The position numbers and the translations under genes are program-made. Positions 1 through 5,768 of a stretch of 5,768 nt of DNA are shown here, one piece after another. The notes below the pieces were generated by a model. The model had not been told where the DNA came from, did not search any database, and saw only the letters and a list, made by a program, of their open reading frames with translations. The stretch is from positions 1-5,768 of the IMG/VR virus record IMGVR_UViG_3300029495_000075; one strand, given 5' to 3'. The DNA comes from a virus. The first letter of the stretch is position 1; each line of letters begins with the position of its first letter.

Positions 1-123
1 GGACATGATAGCGGCGGGCATCAATCCAATACTAGCGGCAAACAACGGCGCTACAGCAACACCAAGCGGAGCAAGTGCAAGCATCGGAACACAGCATTAC
101 AACCAGCAGAGCGCACAAGCGGC
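1..123. repeat. Left copy of the direct terminal repeat (identical to 5646..5768); assembly overlap of a circular genome
   Basis: Base-by-base comparison of 1..123 with 5646..5768 shows identity. The repeat lies inside a continuous ORF (VP2). Confidence 0.95.
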
Positions 124-502
124 GGCAGTGTCAGCGATGTATGAATACGGTAACAATACCGCAGAGTTAGCAAACAGATACCTGGAACTGGCAAAAAAAA
201 GCACAAGCGCGAAACAGTACCATTCTGCAAAAAGCTTTAAAGAAGCAGCAAGCAGTTTAGCACAGTCAAGCGCAAAACAGGTCAGCAATTACAACTATGC
301 GGCAAACAACTTACTCAACGAGTTGGGAGACGCAGGAGACAAGCTAAAAGACGCAGGAGAAAAGGCGGCCGAATCAGCAAAAGGCGCAGGAAGAAAAGCA
401 GCATCGGCCTTTAAAGACAGTTGGGAAAAAGGCGGGAAAAACATCACACCATACACGTCAATCAATCCTAACCAGATAATGGGCGCGTATAGAGGAGATT
501 AA
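1..502 (+). CDS. VP2: VP2 minor capsid / DNA pilot protein, C-terminal part. It continues the ORF that starts at 5257; the whole gene is 891 nt (296 aa) on the circle.
   Basis: The frame is continuous across the junction (codon at 5650 = codon at 5). The motif AERAFAKEMRGTAYQDTVKDMIAAGINPILAA matches the conserved gokushovirus VP2 core (..NTAYQR.V.D...AG.NP.L). The rest is Ala/Ser/Gln/Asn-rich. Stop TAA at 500..502. Confidence 0.8.
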   Translation, partial: DMIAAGINPILAANNGATATPSGASASIGTQHYNQQSAQAAAVSAMYEYGNNTAELANRYLELAKKSTSAKQYHSAKSFKEAASSLAQSSAKQVSNYNYAANNLLNELGDAGDKLKDAGEKAAESAKGAGRKAASAFKDSWEKGGKNITPYTSINPNQIMGAYRGD

Positions 503-680
503 GTTTTCAACAGTTTCAACAGTTTCAACAGGTTTTCAACAAAGAAATACACAAAAAAAATTGGCAATTTAACGAACTTTCAACAATTCAACAAGTTTTA
601 AACAAAAATTTCAACAAGAAAGAAGGCGATAAATATGCGTATCAACGCTAAAAATTAGACTTTTCAACAGTTTCAACAGA
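503..680 (+). repeat. Iteron-like array of the heptamer TTCAACA (often TTTCAACAG), all in one orientation
   Basis: Exact copies start at 506, 515, 524, 535, 579, 587, 610, 663 and 672. Degenerate copies are TTAAACA 598..604, ATCAACG 641..647 and GTCAACT 734..740. The first block has 9,9,11-nt spacing. The region is non-coding. Confidence 0.85.
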
Positions 681-682
681 CC

Positions 683-697
683 CTACTACTACTACTA
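683..697. repeat. Trinucleotide microsatellite (CTA)5
   Basis: ccCTACTACTACTACTAcaaaa read directly, in the intergenic region. Confidence 0.9.
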
Positions 698-739
698 CAA
701 AAAGTAATATATAAAGAAAAAAGAAAGAGAGGTGTCAAC

Positions 740-770
740 TGGCGCAAGATAGACAAGTAATCTTGCGCCA
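740..770 (+). promoter_or_regulatory. Perfect hairpin (11-bp stem, 9-nt loop AGACAAGTA) 5 nt upstream of the rep start. Candidate replication-origin stem-loop and/or translation-control element.
   Basis: TGGCGCAAGAT (740..750) pairs with ATCTTGCGCCA (760..770) with no mismatch. An SD-like GAGGTG at 729..734 lies 5 nt upstream of the stem, and an iteron-like TCAACT abuts the stem base. Confidence 0.6.
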
Positions 771-775
771 AACCT

Positions 776-1771
776 ATGCCATGTACAAACCCGAATGTTT
801 TCCAGATGAACACGAAAAAGCCAACCATGTGGGGAAGTCTAAACTACCTAAAGAAACAGGACCTAGAACAAACCATCATGGACGGCGTAAAAAAAGGAAA
901 CCTCGCATTATTGCCATGCGGAAAATGTGAATACTGCCGAAAACAGATGGCAGACCAATGGGCAACGAGAATAGAACTAGAGGCCCAAAAATGGAAAGAT
1001 GTGATTTTCGTTACAATGACCTACGATGAAGAACATGTTCCATACGGCGAAATTCTAAAAGGCTACCAAAGTATTCAATCTCAAACAGTAAGCAAAAGAG
1101 ACGTGCAGCTTTTTCTAAAGCGTCTCAGAAAAGCATACAAGAAACCGATAAAATACTTCATAGCAGGAGAGTACGGAGACAGAACAAAAAGACCACACTA
1201 CCACGGAATTTTTTTTGGACTAAAACCAGAGGATGGAGTATGGTACAAAAACCAAAAGGGCAACGCATACTTTAAGAGCGAATGGCTAACGAACTTATGG
1301 GGAAAAGGATTTGTAGACTTTTCCCCAGCAGCACCAGGCTCATACGCATATGTGGCACAGTACGTGAATAAAAAAGCAATCGGCGCAGAGCAGAGCACAA
1401 AATACTGGATGCAAGGCCGTGAGCCAGAGTTTAGAATCATGTCAAAAGGCATCGGGGAAAAGTACCTAAAAGAGCACATGAACGAAATACTAGAAACCGA
1501 CAACATCACATGCGCAGGAGGGCGGCAGAAAAGGCCACCAAGGTACTTTGATAAGCTACTTGATAAGGATACCAGCAAAGACACTGAAAACTATTTCAAG
1601 GCCCATTCTGACGAGCTGACAGCAGTGAGAGCCAAAAGACGAAGAAACGCAGTGCTAAGCCTTGTAAACTTAGAGCAAAACACCAGTGTTCCATACTCAA
1701 CATACCTAGAAATACAAAAAGAAAAAGACAAGCAAAAACAAAAGTGGAGAGAACCGAAAGAAACCTTATAG
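776..1771 (+). CDS. VP4: VP4 replication initiation protein (HUH rolling-circle endonuclease)
   Basis: The N-terminus MPCTNP.. and the Cys cluster PCGKCEYCR are typical of gokushovirus VP4. Motif 1 is FVTMTY. The HUH motif is PHYHGIFFG (HYH at 1196..1204). The catalytic tyrosine pair YVAQY sits at 1349..1351 and 1361..1363, followed by VNKK. Stop TAG at 1769..1771. Confidence 0.92.
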   Translation: MPCTNPNVFQMNTKKPTMWGSLNYLKKQDLEQTIMDGVKKGNLALLPCGKCEYCRKQMADQWATRIELEAQKWKDVIFVTMTYDEEHVPYGEILKGYQSIQSQTVSKRDVQLFLKRLRKAYKKPIKYFIAGEYGDRTKRPHYHGIFFGLKPEDGVWYKNQKGNAYFKSEWLTNLWGKGFVDFSPAAPGSYAYVAQYVNKKAIGAEQSTKYWMQGREPEFRIMSKGIGEKYLKEHMNEILETDNITCAGGRQKRPPRYFDKLLDKDTSKDTENYFKAHSDELTAVRAKRRRNAVLSLVNLEQNTSVPYSTYLEIQKEKDKQKQKWREPKETL

Positions 1772-1851
1772 CCAATAAAACAGGGAAAGCAGCGGCGGCA
1801 AAGTCTGACGGAGCGCGCCGACAATCTGACCTGCAAGCCGGTCTTGTCAAG

Positions 1852-1887
1852 AGGAGCGCCCGCGGGCGAGAGTTTAAAAGCGCTCCT
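1852..1887 (+). other. GC-rich stem-loop (8-bp stem AGGAGCGC/GCGCTCCT, 20-nt loop) overlapping a 10-bp palindrome GCCCGCGGGC (1858..1867)
   Basis: Read directly. It lies in a locally GC-rich non-coding island downstream of VP4. A second GGAGCGC copy at 1810..1816 can pair alternatively with GCGCTCC at 1880..1886. Confidence 0.45.
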
Positions 1888-1922
1888 ATCCTAGGGAAAA
1901 TGGAAAAAACCTCAAAAAAAGG

Positions 1923-1951
1923 TTGACTTTTTACCAAAAAAATGGTATAAT
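1923..1951 (+). promoter_or_regulatory. Near-consensus sigma70/sigmaA promoter P1: TTGACT, 17-nt spacer, TATAAT, with an extended -10 TG
   Basis: TTGACT at 1923..1928, a 17-nt spacer, TG at 1943..1944 and TATAAT at 1946..1951. It lies in a non-coding region 28 nt upstream of the 59-aa ORF start. Confidence 0.75.
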
Positions 1952-1978
1952 ATAATCGCAGAAAGGATGATGTAAACC

Positions 1979-2158
1979 ATGAAACAAAAAGAATATAAGT
2001 TCATTGCCCACATCACGCACAAAGACATGACAACAGAAGATAATATGTTCATCGACTACACCGCGAGCGCACGTTGCAGGGCGAGTAAAACAGCACAAAG
2101 ACAAGACGTAGAATCTGTACACCTTTACCGCATTGACAAAACAGAGATTTTTACATAA
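1979..2158 (+). CDS. Hypothetical 59-aa protein (MKQKEYKFIAHITHKDMTTEDNMFIDYTASARCRASKTAQRQDVESVHLYRIDKTEIFT), below the ORF-track cutoff
   Basis: ATG at 1979 is preceded by AGAAAGGA (1960..1967). The ORF is flanked by promoter P1 and a strong intrinsic terminator. Stop TAA at 2156..2158. I recognise no family. Confidence 0.6.
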   Translation: MKQKEYKFIAHITHKDMTTEDNMFIDYTASARCRASKTAQRQDVESVHLYRIDKTEIFT

Positions 2159-2161
2159 AAT
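2133..2161 (+). promoter_or_regulatory. Second near-consensus promoter P2: TTGACA, 17-nt spacer, TAAAAT
   Basis: TTGACA at 2133..2138, a 17-nt spacer (2139..2155) and TAAAAT at 2156..2161. It overlaps the 3' end of the 59-aa ORF. The predicted start near 2168 falls inside the 5' arm of the terminator stem. Confidence 0.5.
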
Positions 2162-2163
2162 AG

Positions 2164-2200
2164 AGGCAGGAAGCCAAAAAGGTTTCCTGCCTTTTATATT
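2164..2200 (+). terminator. Rho-independent terminator after the 59-aa ORF
   Basis: A 12-bp stem (2164..2175 with 2181..2192, one G-U pair), a 5-nt loop AAAAA, then TTTATATTT. Confidence 0.8.
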
Positions 2201-2220
2201 TAAAAGAAAGGGGGAACACA

Positions 2221-2337
2221 ATGGCACATCGTAGCGGCGCAGGCCGTGGCGACCAGCGGAAGTTTACACAAACCGCAAAGCGGACGAAAAACATCAACGT
2301 CCGACCGAAGGTAAGCCGGGGCGGCATCCGGCTGTAA
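2221..2337 (+). CDS. Small basic DNA-binding/packaging protein, 38 aa (gokushovirus ORF8 type; functional analogue of phiX174 J): MAHRSGAGRGDQRKFTQTAKRTKNINVRPKVSRGGIRL
   Basis: An SD AGAAAGGGGG (2205..2214) lies 6 nt before the ATG. The protein has about 11 Arg/Lys in 38 aa. From memory, the C-terminal RGGIRL resembles the ..MRGGIRF end of chlamydiaphage ORF8. Stop TAA at 2335..2337. Confidence 0.72.
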   Translation: MAHRSGAGRGDQRKFTQTAKRTKNINVRPKVSRGGIRL

Positions 2338-2371
2338 TGTTCCAAACGGAACAATGAAAGGAGGTGAACAA

Positions 2372-2479
2372 ATGGACTTTAATGAAAGCATGAACATTTT
2401 TTTGAAAATCCTCGCAATGCTGGATAAAATTTACCACGCAATTGTGAAGGAAGAGGAAGAGACTGAAGAGGAGGAGTAA
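2372..2479 (+). CDS. 35-aa peptide MDFNESMNIFLKILAMLDKIYHAIVKEEEETEEEE: an amphipathic hydrophobic helix plus a poly-acidic tail. Candidate lysis accessory or membrane-active factor.
   Basis: GAAAGGAGGTGA (2357..2368) is a perfect 12-nt anti-SD complement and lies 3 nt before the ATG at 2372. Its TAA (2477..2479) ends 1 nt before the GTG start of the peptidase gene. The peptidase SD is embedded in its Glu codons. Confidence 0.65.
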   Translation: MDFNESMNIFLKILAMLDKIYHAIVKEEEETEEEE

Positions 2480-2480
2480 G

Positions 2481-2876
2481 GTGGAACGTGAAGAATACAG
2501 CTTATTTAATCAGAGCACCCACCAAATAAGTGAACACTTCAAAGTAAGAGAATTTGCACAAAAAGACTTCCGATGTGACAAGGTAATTGTAGACAGAGAA
2601 CTTATAGACGTTTTGGAAGATATACGCGCACATTTCAACAAACCGGTGATTGTAACATCTGGATACCGGACACCAGAATACAACGCAAAAATCGGCGGTG
2701 TAAAAAACTCACAACACACAAAAGGCGCAGCGGCTGATATCCAAGTATCTGATATTCCGGCAAGATGGATACAAAAGTATCTGAAAGACAAATACCCGGA
2801 TAAATACGGCATCGGAAGTTATTTAACTTTTACACACATCGACGTAAGAACTAAAAAAGCACGTTGGAGGGGCTAA
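2481..2876 (+). CDS. Peptidase_M15 (M15_3/YcbK-like, LAS-fold zinc D,D- or L,D-peptidase): putative peptidoglycan hydrolase / endolysin, 131 aa
   Basis: GTG start with GGAGG (2470..2474) 6 nt upstream. Motifs are FKVREF..C, VTSGYRTPEYNAKIGGVKNSQH, KGAAAD and FTHIDVR. They give the H-x6-D...H zinc triad (H79, D86, H119). No N-terminal signal peptide is visible. Confidence 0.85.
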   Translation: MEREEYSLFNQSTHQISEHFKVREFAQKDFRCDKVIVDRELIDVLEDIRAHFNKPVIVTSGYRTPEYNAKIGGVKNSQHTKGAAADIQVSDIPARWIQKYLKDKYPDKYGIGSYLTFTHIDVRTKKARWRG

Positions 2877-2879
2877 AAA

Positions 2880-3134
2880 ATGACACTGAAATTCTACAGT
2901 TTTCATGATGCAATCACGAATGGATACAGCAGTCCTTTCTTACAGCAGAACAGGGCGCAGGCAATCCGCACTGCAAAGTGGAAAGCAAACGAATCAAAAA
3001 TGCAGGAAATCGAGGACATCAGCCTTATGGAGCTGGGCGACTTCGACACCGAAACCGGCGAAATGTTCGGAGCGAAACCAAACCAGCTGTGCAAACTAGT
3101 AGACCTTAAGGAGACGTACAATGTTAAATCCTAA
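2880..3134 (+). CDS. VP5: Conserved gokushovirus non-structural protein (VP5-like), 84 aa
   Basis: GGAGG (2866..2870) lies 9 nt upstream. The pattern ..SSPF....N.AQAIR......EDISLMELGDFDTETGE....P..L matches the small conserved gokushovirus protein as I remember it (PF...A.R.F...P.D..L...G.FD..TG). Confidence 0.6.
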   Translation: MTLKFYSFHDAITNGYSSPFLQQNRAQAIRTAKWKANESKMQEIEDISLMELGDFDTETGEMFGAKPNQLCKLVDLKETYNVKS

Positions 3135-3540
3135 CGTTCTAGTGCGATACTACGGAATACCAACCGAAAGAGTGACAAGCAAAACCGGCAGCGAAACAGC
3201 ACCAACGTGGAAAGCGGTAAAGCGACCAAACGGCACAACGGACTACATCCGACAACCGGATGAAAATGTCTACGAAAAAATTCAAAAGGCAGGCGAAGGA
3301 TACGACCTCGCAAGCGCAATCGCGAGACTAGAAGCCGGAGATTTTTCCATCAAAGCAAAGAGCACAATCTACACAGAGGGCACGCCACTGGAAAATCTGC
3401 CTAAAGACATTGTGACGATGCACGAAACGGCACAGAGGGCGGCGGAAACGCTGGAAGAGCTGAAACAGAAACAGCAGACCGAACAGCCGAAGCCGGAAGA
3501 AAAAAAGGAAGAGGTGAAGCAGAACGAACCGGAACAGTGA
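3121..3540 (+). CDS. VP3: Putative internal scaffolding protein (VP3-like), 139 aa with a charged KQKQQTEQPKPEEKKEEVKQNEPEQ tail
   Basis: AAGGAG (3108..3113) lies 7 nt upstream. It overlaps the previous ORF by 14 nt. Its position immediately upstream of VP1, its size and the segment Y.EGTPLENLPKD......A..A.E.LEEL loosely resemble gokushovirus VP3. The family call is tentative. Confidence 0.5.
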   Translation: MLNPNVLVRYYGIPTERVTSKTGSETAPTWKAVKRPNGTTDYIRQPDENVYEKIQKAGEGYDLASAIARLEAGDFSIKAKSTIYTEGTPLENLPKDIVTMHETAQRAAETLEELKQKQQTEQPKPEEKKEEVKQNEPEQ

Positions 3541-3543
3541 AAA

Positions 3544-3569
3544 CCATTTCGCGCAAGTGCCGCGAATGG
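3544..3569 (+). promoter_or_regulatory. Hairpin enclosing the VP1 initiation region (9 bp with one bulge, 7-nt loop CAAGTGC)
   Basis: CCATT(T)CGCG (3544..3553) pairs with CGCGAATGG (3561..3569). The GTG at 3557 is in the loop and the ATG at 3566 is in the 3' arm. There is no adjacent SD. Confidence 0.35.
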
Positions 3570-5218
3570 AAAGACCGCGATCAAAATTTGACCGCAGCCA
3601 TCAGCTCTTAACGACCATCAACGAAGGCGAACTGGTACCCATCTACATGGACGAAGTGCTACCAGGTGACACAGCACGGGTACAACTTAACGGGCTTATC
3701 AGAATGAGCACTCCTATCTATCCTATCATGGATAACTGTTACATGGATATATATTTCTTCTTTGTGCCTGCAAGACTTTTGTGGTATCACTTTGAAAATA
3801 TGTTCGGTGAAAATGAAACCGACTACTGGGCAGAAGATACGGAGTATTCAACTCCTAAATGCACCATCGGCGGCACCAGCGGCCTTGCAAATGGTTCCAT
3901 CGGCGACTATTTCGGACTGCCGACACAGGTAACGAACGCGCTGGAAGTGAACGCATTACCTGCACGAGCATACTGCAAAATATACAACGAGTGGTTCAGA
4001 GATGAAAATCTTGAAGCGCCGCTTATGGTGGGATACAAAAAGACGGATGACGGCGCAACAAATGCAGACGCAAGCAAAGTAACCGAAAATGCAAACGCTC
4101 TCGACCAGACGACCAACACCAGCGAAGCAACGTTGTATGCAATGAAACCAGCAAAGGTGAGCAAGTTCCACGATTATTTCACATCTTGCCTTCCTTCACC
4201 GTTGAAAAATGCAGAGCCGGTAACGCTGCCAATAACAGGAGCAGCGGGAATATATGCTTACTCAGACAAAGAACTAAAAAATAAAACAGAACAAAACATA
4301 AACAGCTTTACAAGTCAAACAGACGCCGGAGGAACACAAAAACAAAGACTTTACGACATGATCCTATGGGAAGGAACCCCGGCACAAACATATGTAGGAA
4401 ACGGAACGGAAAAAGAACTAAGCTATCTCGGAGCAGACCTTAGCAGTGTAACCGCAACAACGATTAACGACTTACGGCAGGCCATCGCACTGCAACATAT
4501 CTTCGAAGCAGATGCAAGAAACGGCACGAGGTACAGAGAATTCCTTTCCGGGACGTGGGGCATAACAAGTCCGGACAGCCGGCTGCAAATTCCAGAGTAC
4601 ATTGGCGGGCAGCGAATTGCAATCAATGTGAATCAGGTGGTGCAGACCAGCCAAACAGACACCACGACCGGGCAAGCACTGGGCAACACAGCGGCATACA
4701 GCCTAACGACCTGTTCAAAACAGATGGTAGACTATGCAGCAACAGAGTACGGCTATATCATCGGGCTGGCAGTGGTACGAGTGGAACACAGCTACCAGCA
4801 GGGCCTTGGAACCAAATGGACGCGCGGCGGCCGATTCACGTACTACGACCCGCGATTAGCGGCACTGGGCGAACAGCCAGTATACAACAGAGAAATCTAC
4901 GCAGACGGAAGCGAAAAAGATAGCCAGATTTTTGGCTATCAGGAAGCTTGGGCGGATTACCGCTACAAGCCTTCCTACGTAACCGGAGAAATGAGGTCAA
5001 ACTATCAAACGTCTTTGGATGCATGGCACTATGCAGACGACTATGACAAGCTGCCGACACTATCGGCAGAGTGGATTCAGGAAGGACGTGAAAACATCGA
5101 TAGGACTATTGCGGTAACGTCCGCAGTAAGTCACCAATTCTTGTGTGATTTCTGGTTCAATGAAACGTGGTACAGGGAAATGCCAATCTACAGTATCCCG
5201 GGCATCGAAAGAATCTAA
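3557..5218 (+). CDS. VP1: VP1 major capsid protein (Microviridae F-protein family). The start is GTG 3557 or, perhaps more likely, the in-frame ATG 3566.
   Basis: Hallmark gokushovirus motifs: SKFDRSH, LVPIYMDEVLPGDT, YFFFVPARLLW, HDYFTSCLP, TINDLRQAIALQ..E.DARNGTRY.E, RLQIPEYIGG. Stop TAA at 5216..5218. Confidence 0.95.
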   Translation: MPRMERPRSKFDRSHQLLTTINEGELVPIYMDEVLPGDTARVQLNGLIRMSTPIYPIMDNCYMDIYFFFVPARLLWYHFENMFGENETDYWAEDTEYSTPKCTIGGTSGLANGSIGDYFGLPTQVTNALEVNALPARAYCKIYNEWFRDENLEAPLMVGYKKTDDGATNADASKVTENANALDQTTNTSEATLYAMKPAKVSKFHDYFTSCLPSPLKNAEPVTLPITGAAGIYAYSDKELKNKTEQNINSFTSQTDAGGTQKQRLYDMILWEGTPAQTYVGNGTEKELSYLGADLSSVTATTINDLRQAIALQHIFEADARNGTRYREFLSGTWGITSPDSRLQIPEYIGGQRIAINVNQVVQTSQTDTTTGQALGNTAAYSLTTCSKQMVDYAATEYGYIIGLAVVRVEHSYQQGLGTKWTRGGRFTYYDPRLAALGEQPVYNREIYADGSEKDSQIFGYQEAWADYRYKPSYVTGEMRSNYQTSLDAWHYADDYDKLPTLSAEWIQEGRENIDRTIAVTSAVSHQFLCDFWFNETWYREMPIYSIPGIERI

Positions 5219-5228
5219 GAAAGGAGAA

Positions 5229-5254
5229 AGCCGGGCAAAGACCCGGCTATTTTT
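5229..5254 (+). terminator. Intrinsic terminator/attenuator hairpin between VP1 and VP2
   Basis: A 7-bp GC-rich stem AGCCGGG/CCCGGCT (5229..5235 with 5242..5248), a 6-nt loop, one A, then TTTTT (5250..5254). Confidence 0.6.
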
Positions 5255-5256
5255 AA

Positions 5257-5768
5257 ATGGGTACACTTTTATCATGGATGCCGTACATCATGCAGGGACT
5301 TAGCCTACTGACAAGCGTTGCAATGAGTTCAAACCAGAGCAGTGCAACAAGCAGCCAAAGAGCCGGAGAAGAAACAAGCAGCGGAAGCGAAACAACCACC
5401 GGAAGCCTGACAGCACCGCAACAAATCGGCTCAACACAGATTGGAACACCAACAGGCATCACCACATACAACAATCAGGGCAGCGTAAACATGGCAAACG
5501 GCATGAGCTTTTTAAGCTCTATTATCAGTAATCTGATGAACGCAGGAAGCCAAGCAAGCGCAAAAAAATACAACTCCGCAGAAGCGGCGGCAGAAAGAGC
5601 CTTTGCAAAGGAAATGCGCGGCACAGCATATCAGGACACTGTAAAGGACATGATAGCGGCGGGCATCAATCCAATACTAGCGGCAAACAACGGCGCTACA
5701 GCAACACCAAGCGGAGCAAGTGCAAGCATCGGAACACAGCATTACAACCAGCAGAGCGCACAAGCGGC
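5257..5768 (+). CDS. VP2: VP2 minor capsid / DNA pilot protein, N-terminal part. It runs off the window and continues at position 124 of the circle.
   Basis: The frame is open from ATG 5257, directly after an in-frame TAA at 5254..5256, to the window end, and matches 1..502. Alternative in-frame ATGs are at 5278, 5290 and 5323. The N-terminal region is Ser/Thr/Gly/Gln-rich. Confidence 0.78.
   Translation, partial: MGTLLSWMPYIMQGLSLLTSVAMSSNQSSATSSQRAGEETSSGSETTTGSLTAPQQIGSTQIGTPTGITTYNNQGSVNMANGMSFLSSIISNLMNAGSQASAKKYNSAEAAAERAFAKEMRGTAYQDTVKDMIAAGINPILAANNGATATPSGASASIGTQHYNQQSAQA
5646..5768. repeat. Right copy of the direct terminal repeat (identical to 1..123)
   Basis: Same comparison; offset 5645. 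Confidence 0.95.

Follow-up and report, generated by a model that had tools for sequence, protein, structure and literature searches.

Morons, described by Juhala, Hendrix and colleagues, are reportedly accessory units of tailed phages of the lambdoid and HK97 types, each composed of a promoter, a gene and a terminator. Bacterial acr operons are early anti-defence loci marked by conserved strong regulatory sequences. Likewise, conserved strong regulatory sequences located 5' of variable small genes marked anti-defence genes in archaeal viruses (PMC11065993). Microviruses were described as poorly mosaic, with almost no accessory genes (Kirchberger et al. 2022, PMC9239249). In the same study, small unannotated proteins of about 65 amino acids (aa) were found to link otherwise unrelated microviruses and one peptidase region showed raised identity between distant genomes, such links being possibly spurious. 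Here, we analyze a small gene, ORF59 (a 59-aa open reading frame, ORF), together with its promoter P1 and its terminator, in a gokushovirus-type microvirus genome (IMG/VR record IMGVR_UViG_3300029495_000075, positions 1 to 5,768). This whole stretch of 5,768 nucleotides (nt) is called the window below.

The ORF59 locus is an accessory cassette of the moron-like kind, found in a virus family where these were not thought to matter. It resembles a moron by its near-consensus promoter, single small gene and strong intrinsic terminator. As expected for such a unit, ORF59 is present or absent between the same neighbours in near-identical genomes and appears to have moved between distant backbones. 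The differences from morons are also clear. The carrier is a single-stranded DNA (ssDNA) microvirus of 5.6 kb, P1 is a backbone promoter of the clade rather than cargo of an insert, and the cassette has its own predicted restart promoter, P2, for the downstream genes. Moreover, the base composition of ORF59 is not clearly foreign (GC content 0.33-0.48 across ORF59, values that fall within those of the rest of the window). Neither an integrase nor a prophage context was seen. In contrast with the links reported in PMC9239249, the exchange of ORF59 is documented with borders, with selection and with a defined expression slot. In our overall picture, to which we give a probability of roughly 0.55, ORF59 would be an accessory, insulated and host-directed small protein. 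The architectural part of this picture is far more secure than the functional part.

Organization of the ORF59 locus

The unit formed by P1, ORF59 and the terminator is located between rep/VP4 (776-1771) and a J/VP8-like gene (2221-2337), which is followed by the genes of the M15 peptidase, VP5, VP3 and VP1. Its parts are as follows.

1895-1922, plus strand: A-tract GGAAAATGGAAAAAACCTCAAAAAAAGG, upstream of the -35 box of P1, read from the sequence
1923-1951, plus strand: promoter P1, with -35 TTGACT (1923-1928), 17-nt spacer, -10 TATAAT (1946-1951) and TG at 1943-1944 (extended -10, TGgTATAAT)
1952-1978, plus strand: 5' leader, with ribosome-binding site (RBS) GAAAGGA (1961-1967) and two-codon mini-ORF ATGATGTAA (1968-1976)
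1979-2158, plus strand: ORF59, 59 aa (family A, see below), ATG at 1979 and TAA at 2156-2158
2133-2161, plus strand: promoter P2, TTGACA-17-TAAAAT, 11/12 hexamer matches
2162-2200, plus strand: intrinsic terminator, 14-pair hairpin (2162-2194) and U-rich tail UUUUAUAUUU

P1 has 11 of 12 hexamer matches plus the extended -10 and is the top-scoring promoter-like site of the window. When up to one mismatch is allowed, the full extended pattern is present once in the window and in none of 200 dinucleotide shuffles. A-runs directly before TTGAC are also present in relatives, and the A-tract is possibly an UP-element-like sequence. Transcription would start at about 1958-1960. The leader, AGAAAGGA, is conserved in relatives, and the pattern made of the P1 -10 and the leader was found again in about 30 microvirus-size IMG/VR contigs. 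The terminator hairpin contains 14 pairs (7 G-C, some G-U) closed by a 5-nt loop. Its predicted energy is -23.7 kcal/mol (z -4.85 to -6.8), and an equally stable structure was found in 0 of 200 shuffles. P2 lies inside the 3' end of ORF59. Its -35 is formed by Ile-Asp-Lys codons, its -10 overlaps the stop codon, and it ends one base before the hairpin. Its exact pattern was never found in 200 shuffles.

P1, the RBS, the 59-aa ORF and the terminator had all been noticed in a preliminary description of this DNA, and each is in place; P1, the ORF and the terminator are beyond chance. The terminator hairpin and its T-tract are present, but the stem has 14 pairs and not 12. The same description called the locus a moron-like autonomous unit. 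This interpretation is supported in part: promoter, gene and terminator are genuine, but the promoter is not private to the unit, and P2 had been overlooked. Because of P2, the unit is not a simple dead-end insertion. The ORF had not been recognized by the earlier reader, and the profile and structure searches reported below yield no known function for it.

Some further observations concern P1 and its leader. The mini-ORF ATG ATG TAA (1968-1976) stands between the RBS and the ORF59 start. Two relatives, L011 and L224, have ATG GTG/GTA TAA there, and the mini-ORF is absent from the AGAAAGGAAGGTGCTAAAA-type leaders of most relatives. The 22-base pattern of P1 -10 and leader (ATGRTAKAATATAATNNNAGAAAGG) also matches 10 large viral contigs of 15-180 kb (L217, L220, L225, L235, L240-L242, L246, L253 and L255). 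In the large contigs examined (L220, L235, L240, L246 and L253), it is located 5' of small ORFs. This suggests either a host-optimal promoter and Shine-Dalgarno module common with tailed phages of the same hosts, or an exchange of the module. Two other views of P1 were set aside, that of a dif/XerCD-like site, since the XerD arm does not fit by eye, and that of a single-strand promoter.

ORF59 encodes a protein of a new family

A search of 5.8 billion proteins identified ORF59 homologues in 44 clusters, at 67-92% identity. The longest contigs of these clusters are mostly 4-6 kb, which is microvirus size; several are below 2 kb and a single one reaches 14 kb. When 1.84 billion representatives were searched with a profile, 19 matches were obtained, which added only small, more distant and unannotated relatives. 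As judged from these contigs, the family appears confined to microvirus-like contexts.

ORF59 is a real protein-coding gene. Pairwise ratios of nonsynonymous to synonymous substitution rates (dN/dS) are 0.02-0.26 and hold over the entire ORF, indicating purifying selection. The plus-strand frame of ORF59 is the only one that is open in 11 of 11 full-length relatives, the other five gaining stops in some of them. AlphaFold2, run with 26 sequences, predicts a beta-beta-alpha-beta fold with high confidence (predicted local distance difference test score, pLDDT, 95; predicted template modelling score, pTM, 0.75). These three lines of evidence establish the coding status. The protein contains a basic helix (SARxRAKKxA) and an invariant C-terminal LYRIxKT motif. 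The RIDKTE peptide persists in relatives that have lost the P2 -35 through synonymous Ile codons (ATA, ATC). Therefore, the C-terminus is conserved as protein too, and not just as a promoter. An antisense ORF of 98 aa (1931-2227, minus strand) was rejected: outside the closest subfamily it does not stay open, with 2-3 stops in L221, L222 and L254.

No match to ORF59 was found in Pfam, PHROGs, NCBIfam, PADLOC or with a PDB sequence profile. Foldseek comparison of the model with the PDB gave nothing below E = 0.4, and comparison with BFVD gave one homologue, the rest being uncharacterized phage proteins. Profiles of the known small proteins of microviruses (VP8/J, VP5/ORF5, phiX C, K and E) do not match either. 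Five GenBank records encode an ORF59 homologue; in none of them is a feature annotated over it. Within these searches, ORF59 thus stands as a new, unannotated protein family.

A second set of small ORFs, family B (M-x-H-x-YELR...AEPKxAK...YSL...YFTEKE), was found at about 20 loci. We define here a family A/B superfamily of small ORFs of gut gokushoviruses. Its members have about 56-66 aa and occupy the slot downstream of a P1-type promoter. They contain a Y-x-F/L strand, a basic helix and a hydrophobic Y-x-I/V-[DE]-K strand. ORF59 shows all these characters. Profile-profile comparison of families A and B gave a probability of 65% and E = 6e-5, over the helix and strand 3, the last strand. Families A and B are probably one fast-diverging superfamily.

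The slot downstream of P1 is exchangeable

In relatives of the window, the first ORF behind P1 belongs to family A (including a divergent version, A2), to family B, C or D, or there is almost nothing (L003). To sample genomes regardless of slot content, 60 were fetched via the conserved start of the J-like gene. About 21 of these have a Rep at least 90% identical to that of the window. Three of them carry ORF59 (the window, L011 and L224), one a divergent A2 homologue, six a family B ORF and 11 none, where "none" means that no small ORF of families A-D, the families searched for, was found. This is the patchy distribution that the preliminary description had predicted for an accessory gene. 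Its further statement that microvirus genomes are normally too compact for such units does not apply here, since a small ORF after P1 is common in the clade.

In eight of the 11 close relatives with an empty slot (Rep 90-97% identical, including GenBank KT264784), the region between rep and the J-like gene is a compact 154-nt version. The order there is rep stop, short hairpin, TTGACT-17-TATAAT, leader and J-like gene. The promoter of these eight genomes, directly 5' of the J-like gene, is P1-like and has the -35 and the RBS-proximal part of the leader in common with P1. For this reason we consider that P1, a near-consensus sigma-70-type promoter by its sequence, is the common backbone promoter of the clade and not cargo of the unit. 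In several family B genomes, P1 runs straight into the peptidase gene and the terminator is absent.

The remaining three empty slots result from independent deletions. In L293, the lost segment extends from the P1 -10 to about codon 51 of ORF59; L316 has lost P1 and the B gene, and only an ORF remnant is left in L294. In another relative, L256, the equivalent of window positions 1895-2049 is lost, that is the A-tract, P1, the leader and codons 1-24. In these four genomes the ORF and/or P1 are gone and a promoter directly before the J-like gene is always kept; in L256 and L293, it is P2 with its hairpin. Fused or truncated ORFs (P0041-44, 47, 48, 53, 56, 57 and 59) point to further deletion-like events.

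Comparison of nucleotide sequences makes the exchange visible. L008 and L014 share about 93% identity with the window genome-wide, except in the region of about 1967/1990-2221, where these two genomes have family B. Identity in blastn restarts exactly at 2221, which marks the right border of the exchangeable cassette. Among close relatives, the J-like gene is 97-100% identical whatever the slot contains. Conversely, L245 is a distant genome (VP1 41% and Rep 43% identical to those of the window) with an ORF59 that is 90% identical, and blastn aligns only 1771-2160. Homologues of ORF59 were also found behind at least five types of the GC-rich element that precedes P1 (described below), which argues that the partner of ORF59 is not a co-inherited part of the phage. 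With the slot empty, filled by family B or deleted in close relatives, and with a 90% identical copy in the distant L245, these genome comparisons indicate that ORF59 can be dispensed with, swapped and transferred horizontally. We also considered, and dropped, a link between ORF59 and the M15 peptidase, as homologues occur in genomes with no tblastn match to the M15 peptidase of the window.

Proposed coupling of the terminator with P2

ORF59 is an optional, horizontally exchangeable gene in a conserved slot of a gut gokushovirus lineage, predicted to be highly expressed, just 3' of P1. In the mechanism that we propose, the P1 transcript would be about 240 nt long, comprising a 20-nt leader and ORF59, and would stop at the strong intrinsic terminator. 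The product would be a short, abundant, monocistronic mRNA. P2, built into the last ORF59 codons, would start RNA roughly 7 nt past TAAAAT, near 2168, a position in the 5' arm of the hairpin. Transcripts from P2 would therefore be without three basal G-C pairs of the stem, would escape termination and would allow expression of the J-like, lysis and structural genes. Folding calculations are consistent with this scheme: an RNA starting at 2168 reaches only -11.1 kcal/mol, with GCC between stem and U-tract, compared with -23.7 kcal/mol for the full hairpin. We infer that P1 RNA terminates and that P2 RNA reads on into the late genes. Such a design would keep the essential late genes expressed whatever the slot occupant.

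Conservation of both elements was observed in relatives. P2 is intact in 10 of 10 loci where a window-type hairpin follows. Loci of the window type, with both P2 hexamers before the hairpin, are the window, L011, L224, L228, L250, L281, L282, L284 and L002. The stem of the terminator is kept via compensatory changes, for example from GGCAGG/CCTGCC to GACAGA/TCTGTC, and L002 even has an unrelated stem at the same position. The terminator hairpins of relatives all have energies between -18.6 and -26.7 kcal/mol (z -5.7 to -8.4). P2 and hairpin are kept in the window-type deletion variants L256 and L293, which are without P1 and most of ORF59. This argues that P2 probably restarts transcription of the J-like gene and of the other late genes. 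As a side test, we asked whether the Ile codon ATT (versus ATA/ATC) tracks the presence of the hairpin; the trend is weak and comes from about two lineages, and the idea was dropped.

When the small ORF of a relative is followed by a terminator, a new promoter is coupled to this terminator in nearly all cases. Promoter-coupled terminators were recently described in bacteria (Fletcher et al., bioRxiv 10.64898/2026.08.19.745784). In these, the stem-loop supplies the -35, the T-tract is the spacer and the -10 is directly downstream. By sequence, this layout is matched in several relatives: in L243, L252, L245, L229, L233, L234, L251, L286, L271 and L288, TTGACA is located in the loop or stem of a GC hairpin and is followed by a T-tract spacer and then a -10. 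The window differs, since the order is reversed, with both P2 hexamers 5' of the hairpin inside the 3' end of the ORF. The predicted start is inside the 5' arm and the stem-loop contains no -35; only a weak TATATT (2195-2200) follows the hairpin. A third arrangement was seen in L008, L014 and L227, where the hairpin has its 5' arm inside the TTGACA-17-TAAAAT spacer and the J gene RBS as its 3' arm. Given the position of these arms, the hairpin could only be formed by upstream (P1) transcripts.

Possible function of ORF59

A host-directed role of ORF59, rather than one in phage replication or assembly, is the best-supported guess. It is suggested by the dispensability of the gene, by its movement between backbones with 41% VP1 identity and by the presence of homologues behind at least five types of upstream element. 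It is also suggested by the alternative small proteins that fill one slot and by the insulated, probably abundant transcript. Traits of this kind have guided the discovery of anti-defence genes elsewhere (PMC11065993). ORF59 would then bind a host component stoichiometrically, as an anti-defence or host-takeover factor. The locus resembles the early anti-defence loci of archaeal viruses (PMC11065993) and the bacterial acr operons in that a conserved strong promoter and leader precede small, diverse and exchangeable ORFs, whose fold family is not a known one. No known anti-CRISPR (Acr) or other anti-defence homologue was found at ORF59 in Pfam, PHROGs, NCBIfam or PADLOC, and no adjacent regulator with a helix-turn-helix like those of anti-CRISPR-associated (Aca) proteins was seen.

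Among known structures, the top superposition of the ORF59 model was with the T4 antitoxin Dmd (PDB 5hy3_B), a 60-aa inhibitor of the RnlA/LsoA toxins. The two proteins resemble each other in size and in their small fold made of a beta-sheet and a helix (template modelling score 0.70/0.72, root-mean-square deviation 2.2 Å, 49 columns, 12% identity, Foldseek E = 1.7). There is no sequence homology between them, and so simple a fold is common among uncharacterized phage proteins.

Several points weigh against this picture. ORF59 has no homology to a known anti-defence, exclusion or takeover protein, domain or solved structure. The resemblance with Dmd is statistically insignificant and concerns a simple fold, so that we take it as a weak lead and not as a classification. 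The homology of P1 to the backbone promoter means that the unit is no self-contained moron of the classical kind. The small ORF of several family B genomes has no terminator; it opens the late operon as its first cistron and in some cases overlaps the peptidase gene, an arrangement that would also suit a role inside the phage or in lysis. The P2 start, and hence the read-through logic, is a prediction. The intact P2 -35 (Ile ATT) is only weakly correlated with the presence of a hairpin, ATT being also found where no hairpin follows. The deletion variants are metagenomic contigs and could be defective genomes.

The position of the small ORF as first late-operon cistron in many relatives, and the fact that it abuts or overlaps the M15 peptidase gene in several family B genomes, would suit a protein that serves the phage's own cycle. 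ORF59 would then be a modulator of replication, packaging or lysis timing, like phiX174 C, K or A*, overproduced from the main promoter. Its purifying selection agrees with such a role, as does its basic helix SARxRAKKxA, for which nucleic-acid binding is conceivable. Yet the gene is missing from eight otherwise near-identical genomes and was deleted independently several times, it is exchanged freely between backbones with 41% VP1 identity, it is found in genomes with no M15 peptidase match and it is not bound to one upstream GC element type. We thus consider a phage-internal role unlikely. A role in competition between phages, such as superinfection exclusion of related microviruses of the same host, is less probable still. 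It would account for the patchy distribution, for the alternative families in one slot of co-occurring phages (many of the contigs come from IMG sample 3300045988) and for the high expression predicted for ORF59. Proteins that block entry are, however, usually membrane-associated, and no membrane segment or signal peptide is apparent in ORF59 by eye; nor is there any sign that the phage persists in cells as a prophage or in a carrier state.

The last alternative, in which the peptide is functionless and the unit is a regulatory RNA, a leader or a transcriptional insulator (P1, terminator and P2), is largely refuted. The C-terminal codons do double as P2, and the window-type deletion variants keep precisely the ORF 3' end, P2 and the hairpin. 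Nevertheless, an incidental ORF is very hard to reconcile with low dN/dS values (0.02-0.26) over its whole length or with a frame that is open in every full-length homologue while the five others hit stops in some relatives. Nor would it explain the retention of RIDKTE where synonymous Ile codons destroy the -35, or the confident AlphaFold2 fold.

Returning to the host-directed role, an extended version can be put forward as a tentative idea, less probable than the overall picture. The P1 slot of gut gokushoviruses would be a counter-defence or takeover slot exchangeable by recombination, and the ORF59 and family B proteins would be the first such effectors in Microviridae, produced in large amounts from an insulated transcript; separately, the GC-rich element together with the DnaA-box-like arrays described below would be a complementary-strand origin. 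If the slot is indeed one for counter-defence, microvirus genomes could be screened for host-interaction genes with the conserved P1 leader as a "regulatory handle". Microviruses count among the most abundant phages of the gut. The locus shows a defined slot, predicted to be highly expressed, in which close as well as very distant genomes gain, swap and lose small genes. It is an entry point to how phages of 5.6 kb handle host defences or physiology, as well as to the organization of transcription in ssDNA phages outside phiX174.

The GC-rich element upstream of P1

A structured non-coding element of 124 nt is located directly 3' of the rep stop and ends at the A-tract. The helices listed are those of an RNAalifold consensus.

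1771-1894, plus strand: GC-rich structured non-coding element, containing motif AAAGTCTGAC
1810-1816/1880-1886: main helix of 7 bp (GGAGCGC/GCGCTCC), enclosing hairpins A and B
1828-1833/1838-1843: hairpin A
1857-1860/1865-1868: hairpin B

The element is conserved above any gene: between the window and MG945382 it has 88% identity, compared with about 43% for VP1. Within the sequence type of the window, 98.9% of cells are paired, with compensatory changes at 3 pairs. Other genomes have, at this place, different sequences built on the same plan. An AA[AC]G[CT][CT]..[AG]C motif is followed by a perfect helix of 6-8 bp, of which at least five unrelated versions exist, and then by a pyrimidine-rich strand and a GC hairpin whose loop is often ACC(A). 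All types of the element have an AAAGTYAC-like motif 5' of the main helix. In L245 (IMG/VR 3300045988_021296), the 3' half of the element (GGGCGGGAGTCTAACGGCGCTCCTATCCTAGAAAAAATCTCAAAAAACTTTAA) is tandemly duplicated 5' of P1.

The element is not coding, since indels break every frame; these include the frame of a GTG-initiated ORF of 60 aa (1744-1926) that covers it, broken by indels between relatives. Single-sequence folding of 1765-1925 is unremarkable (z about -0.7), the structure being revealed only by the comparative analysis. Rfam gave no credible match in the window, including the element, or in eight relatives. A loose gapped pattern designed for the element gave only chance matches in contigs of GC-rich genomes and of tailed phages, and was discarded. 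In other small microviruses, conserved intergenic hairpins with compensatory changes were proposed as primosome sites for complementary-strand synthesis (PMC9865509). By analogy, our leading guess is that the element may be a complementary-strand origin or a primosome site.

Other features of the genome

The window is a circularly permuted gokushovirus-type genome in which bases 1-125 recur at 5644-5768. With 93% identity, Gokushovirus WZ-2015a from human faeces (KT264784) is its closest GenBank record. All genes are on the plus strand.

5274 across the junction to 502, plus strand: VP2
505-678, between VP2 and rep: ten copies of the DnaA-box-like repeat TTTCAACA
776-1771, plus strand: rep/VP4
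2221-2337, plus strand: J/VP8-like gene, 38 aa, basic (phrog_10695), first gene downstream of ORF59
2354-2479, plus strand: 41-aa ORF, directly 5' of the M15 peptidase gene, weak phrog_741 match
2481-2876, plus strand: M15 peptidase
2880-3134, plus strand: VP5 (PF20577)
3121-3540, plus strand: VP3
3557-5218, plus strand: VP1

The repeat TTTCAACA is the reverse complement of TGTTGAAA, a sequence that resembles a DnaA box. Perfect TGTGGATAA copies are present inside the homologous arrays of three relatives, L218, L219 and L221. Many relatives have the array in opposite orientation, located between rep and the GC-rich element; therefore, the arrangement of rep and repeats differs between lineages.

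The 41-aa ORF (2354-2479) encodes an amphipathic helix and an acidic tail, EEEETEEEE, and may correspond to a lysis accessory protein. An in-frame fusion of a homologue of this ORF with an ORF59 homologue is found in P0017 and P0019. Finally, a perfect 11-bp hairpin (740-770, region GGCGCAAGATA...TATCTTGCGCC; DNA fold -12.6 kcal/mol, z -4.6) is located directly 5' of the rep start at 776. This hairpin could act as an operator, control translation or belong to a Rep nick site.

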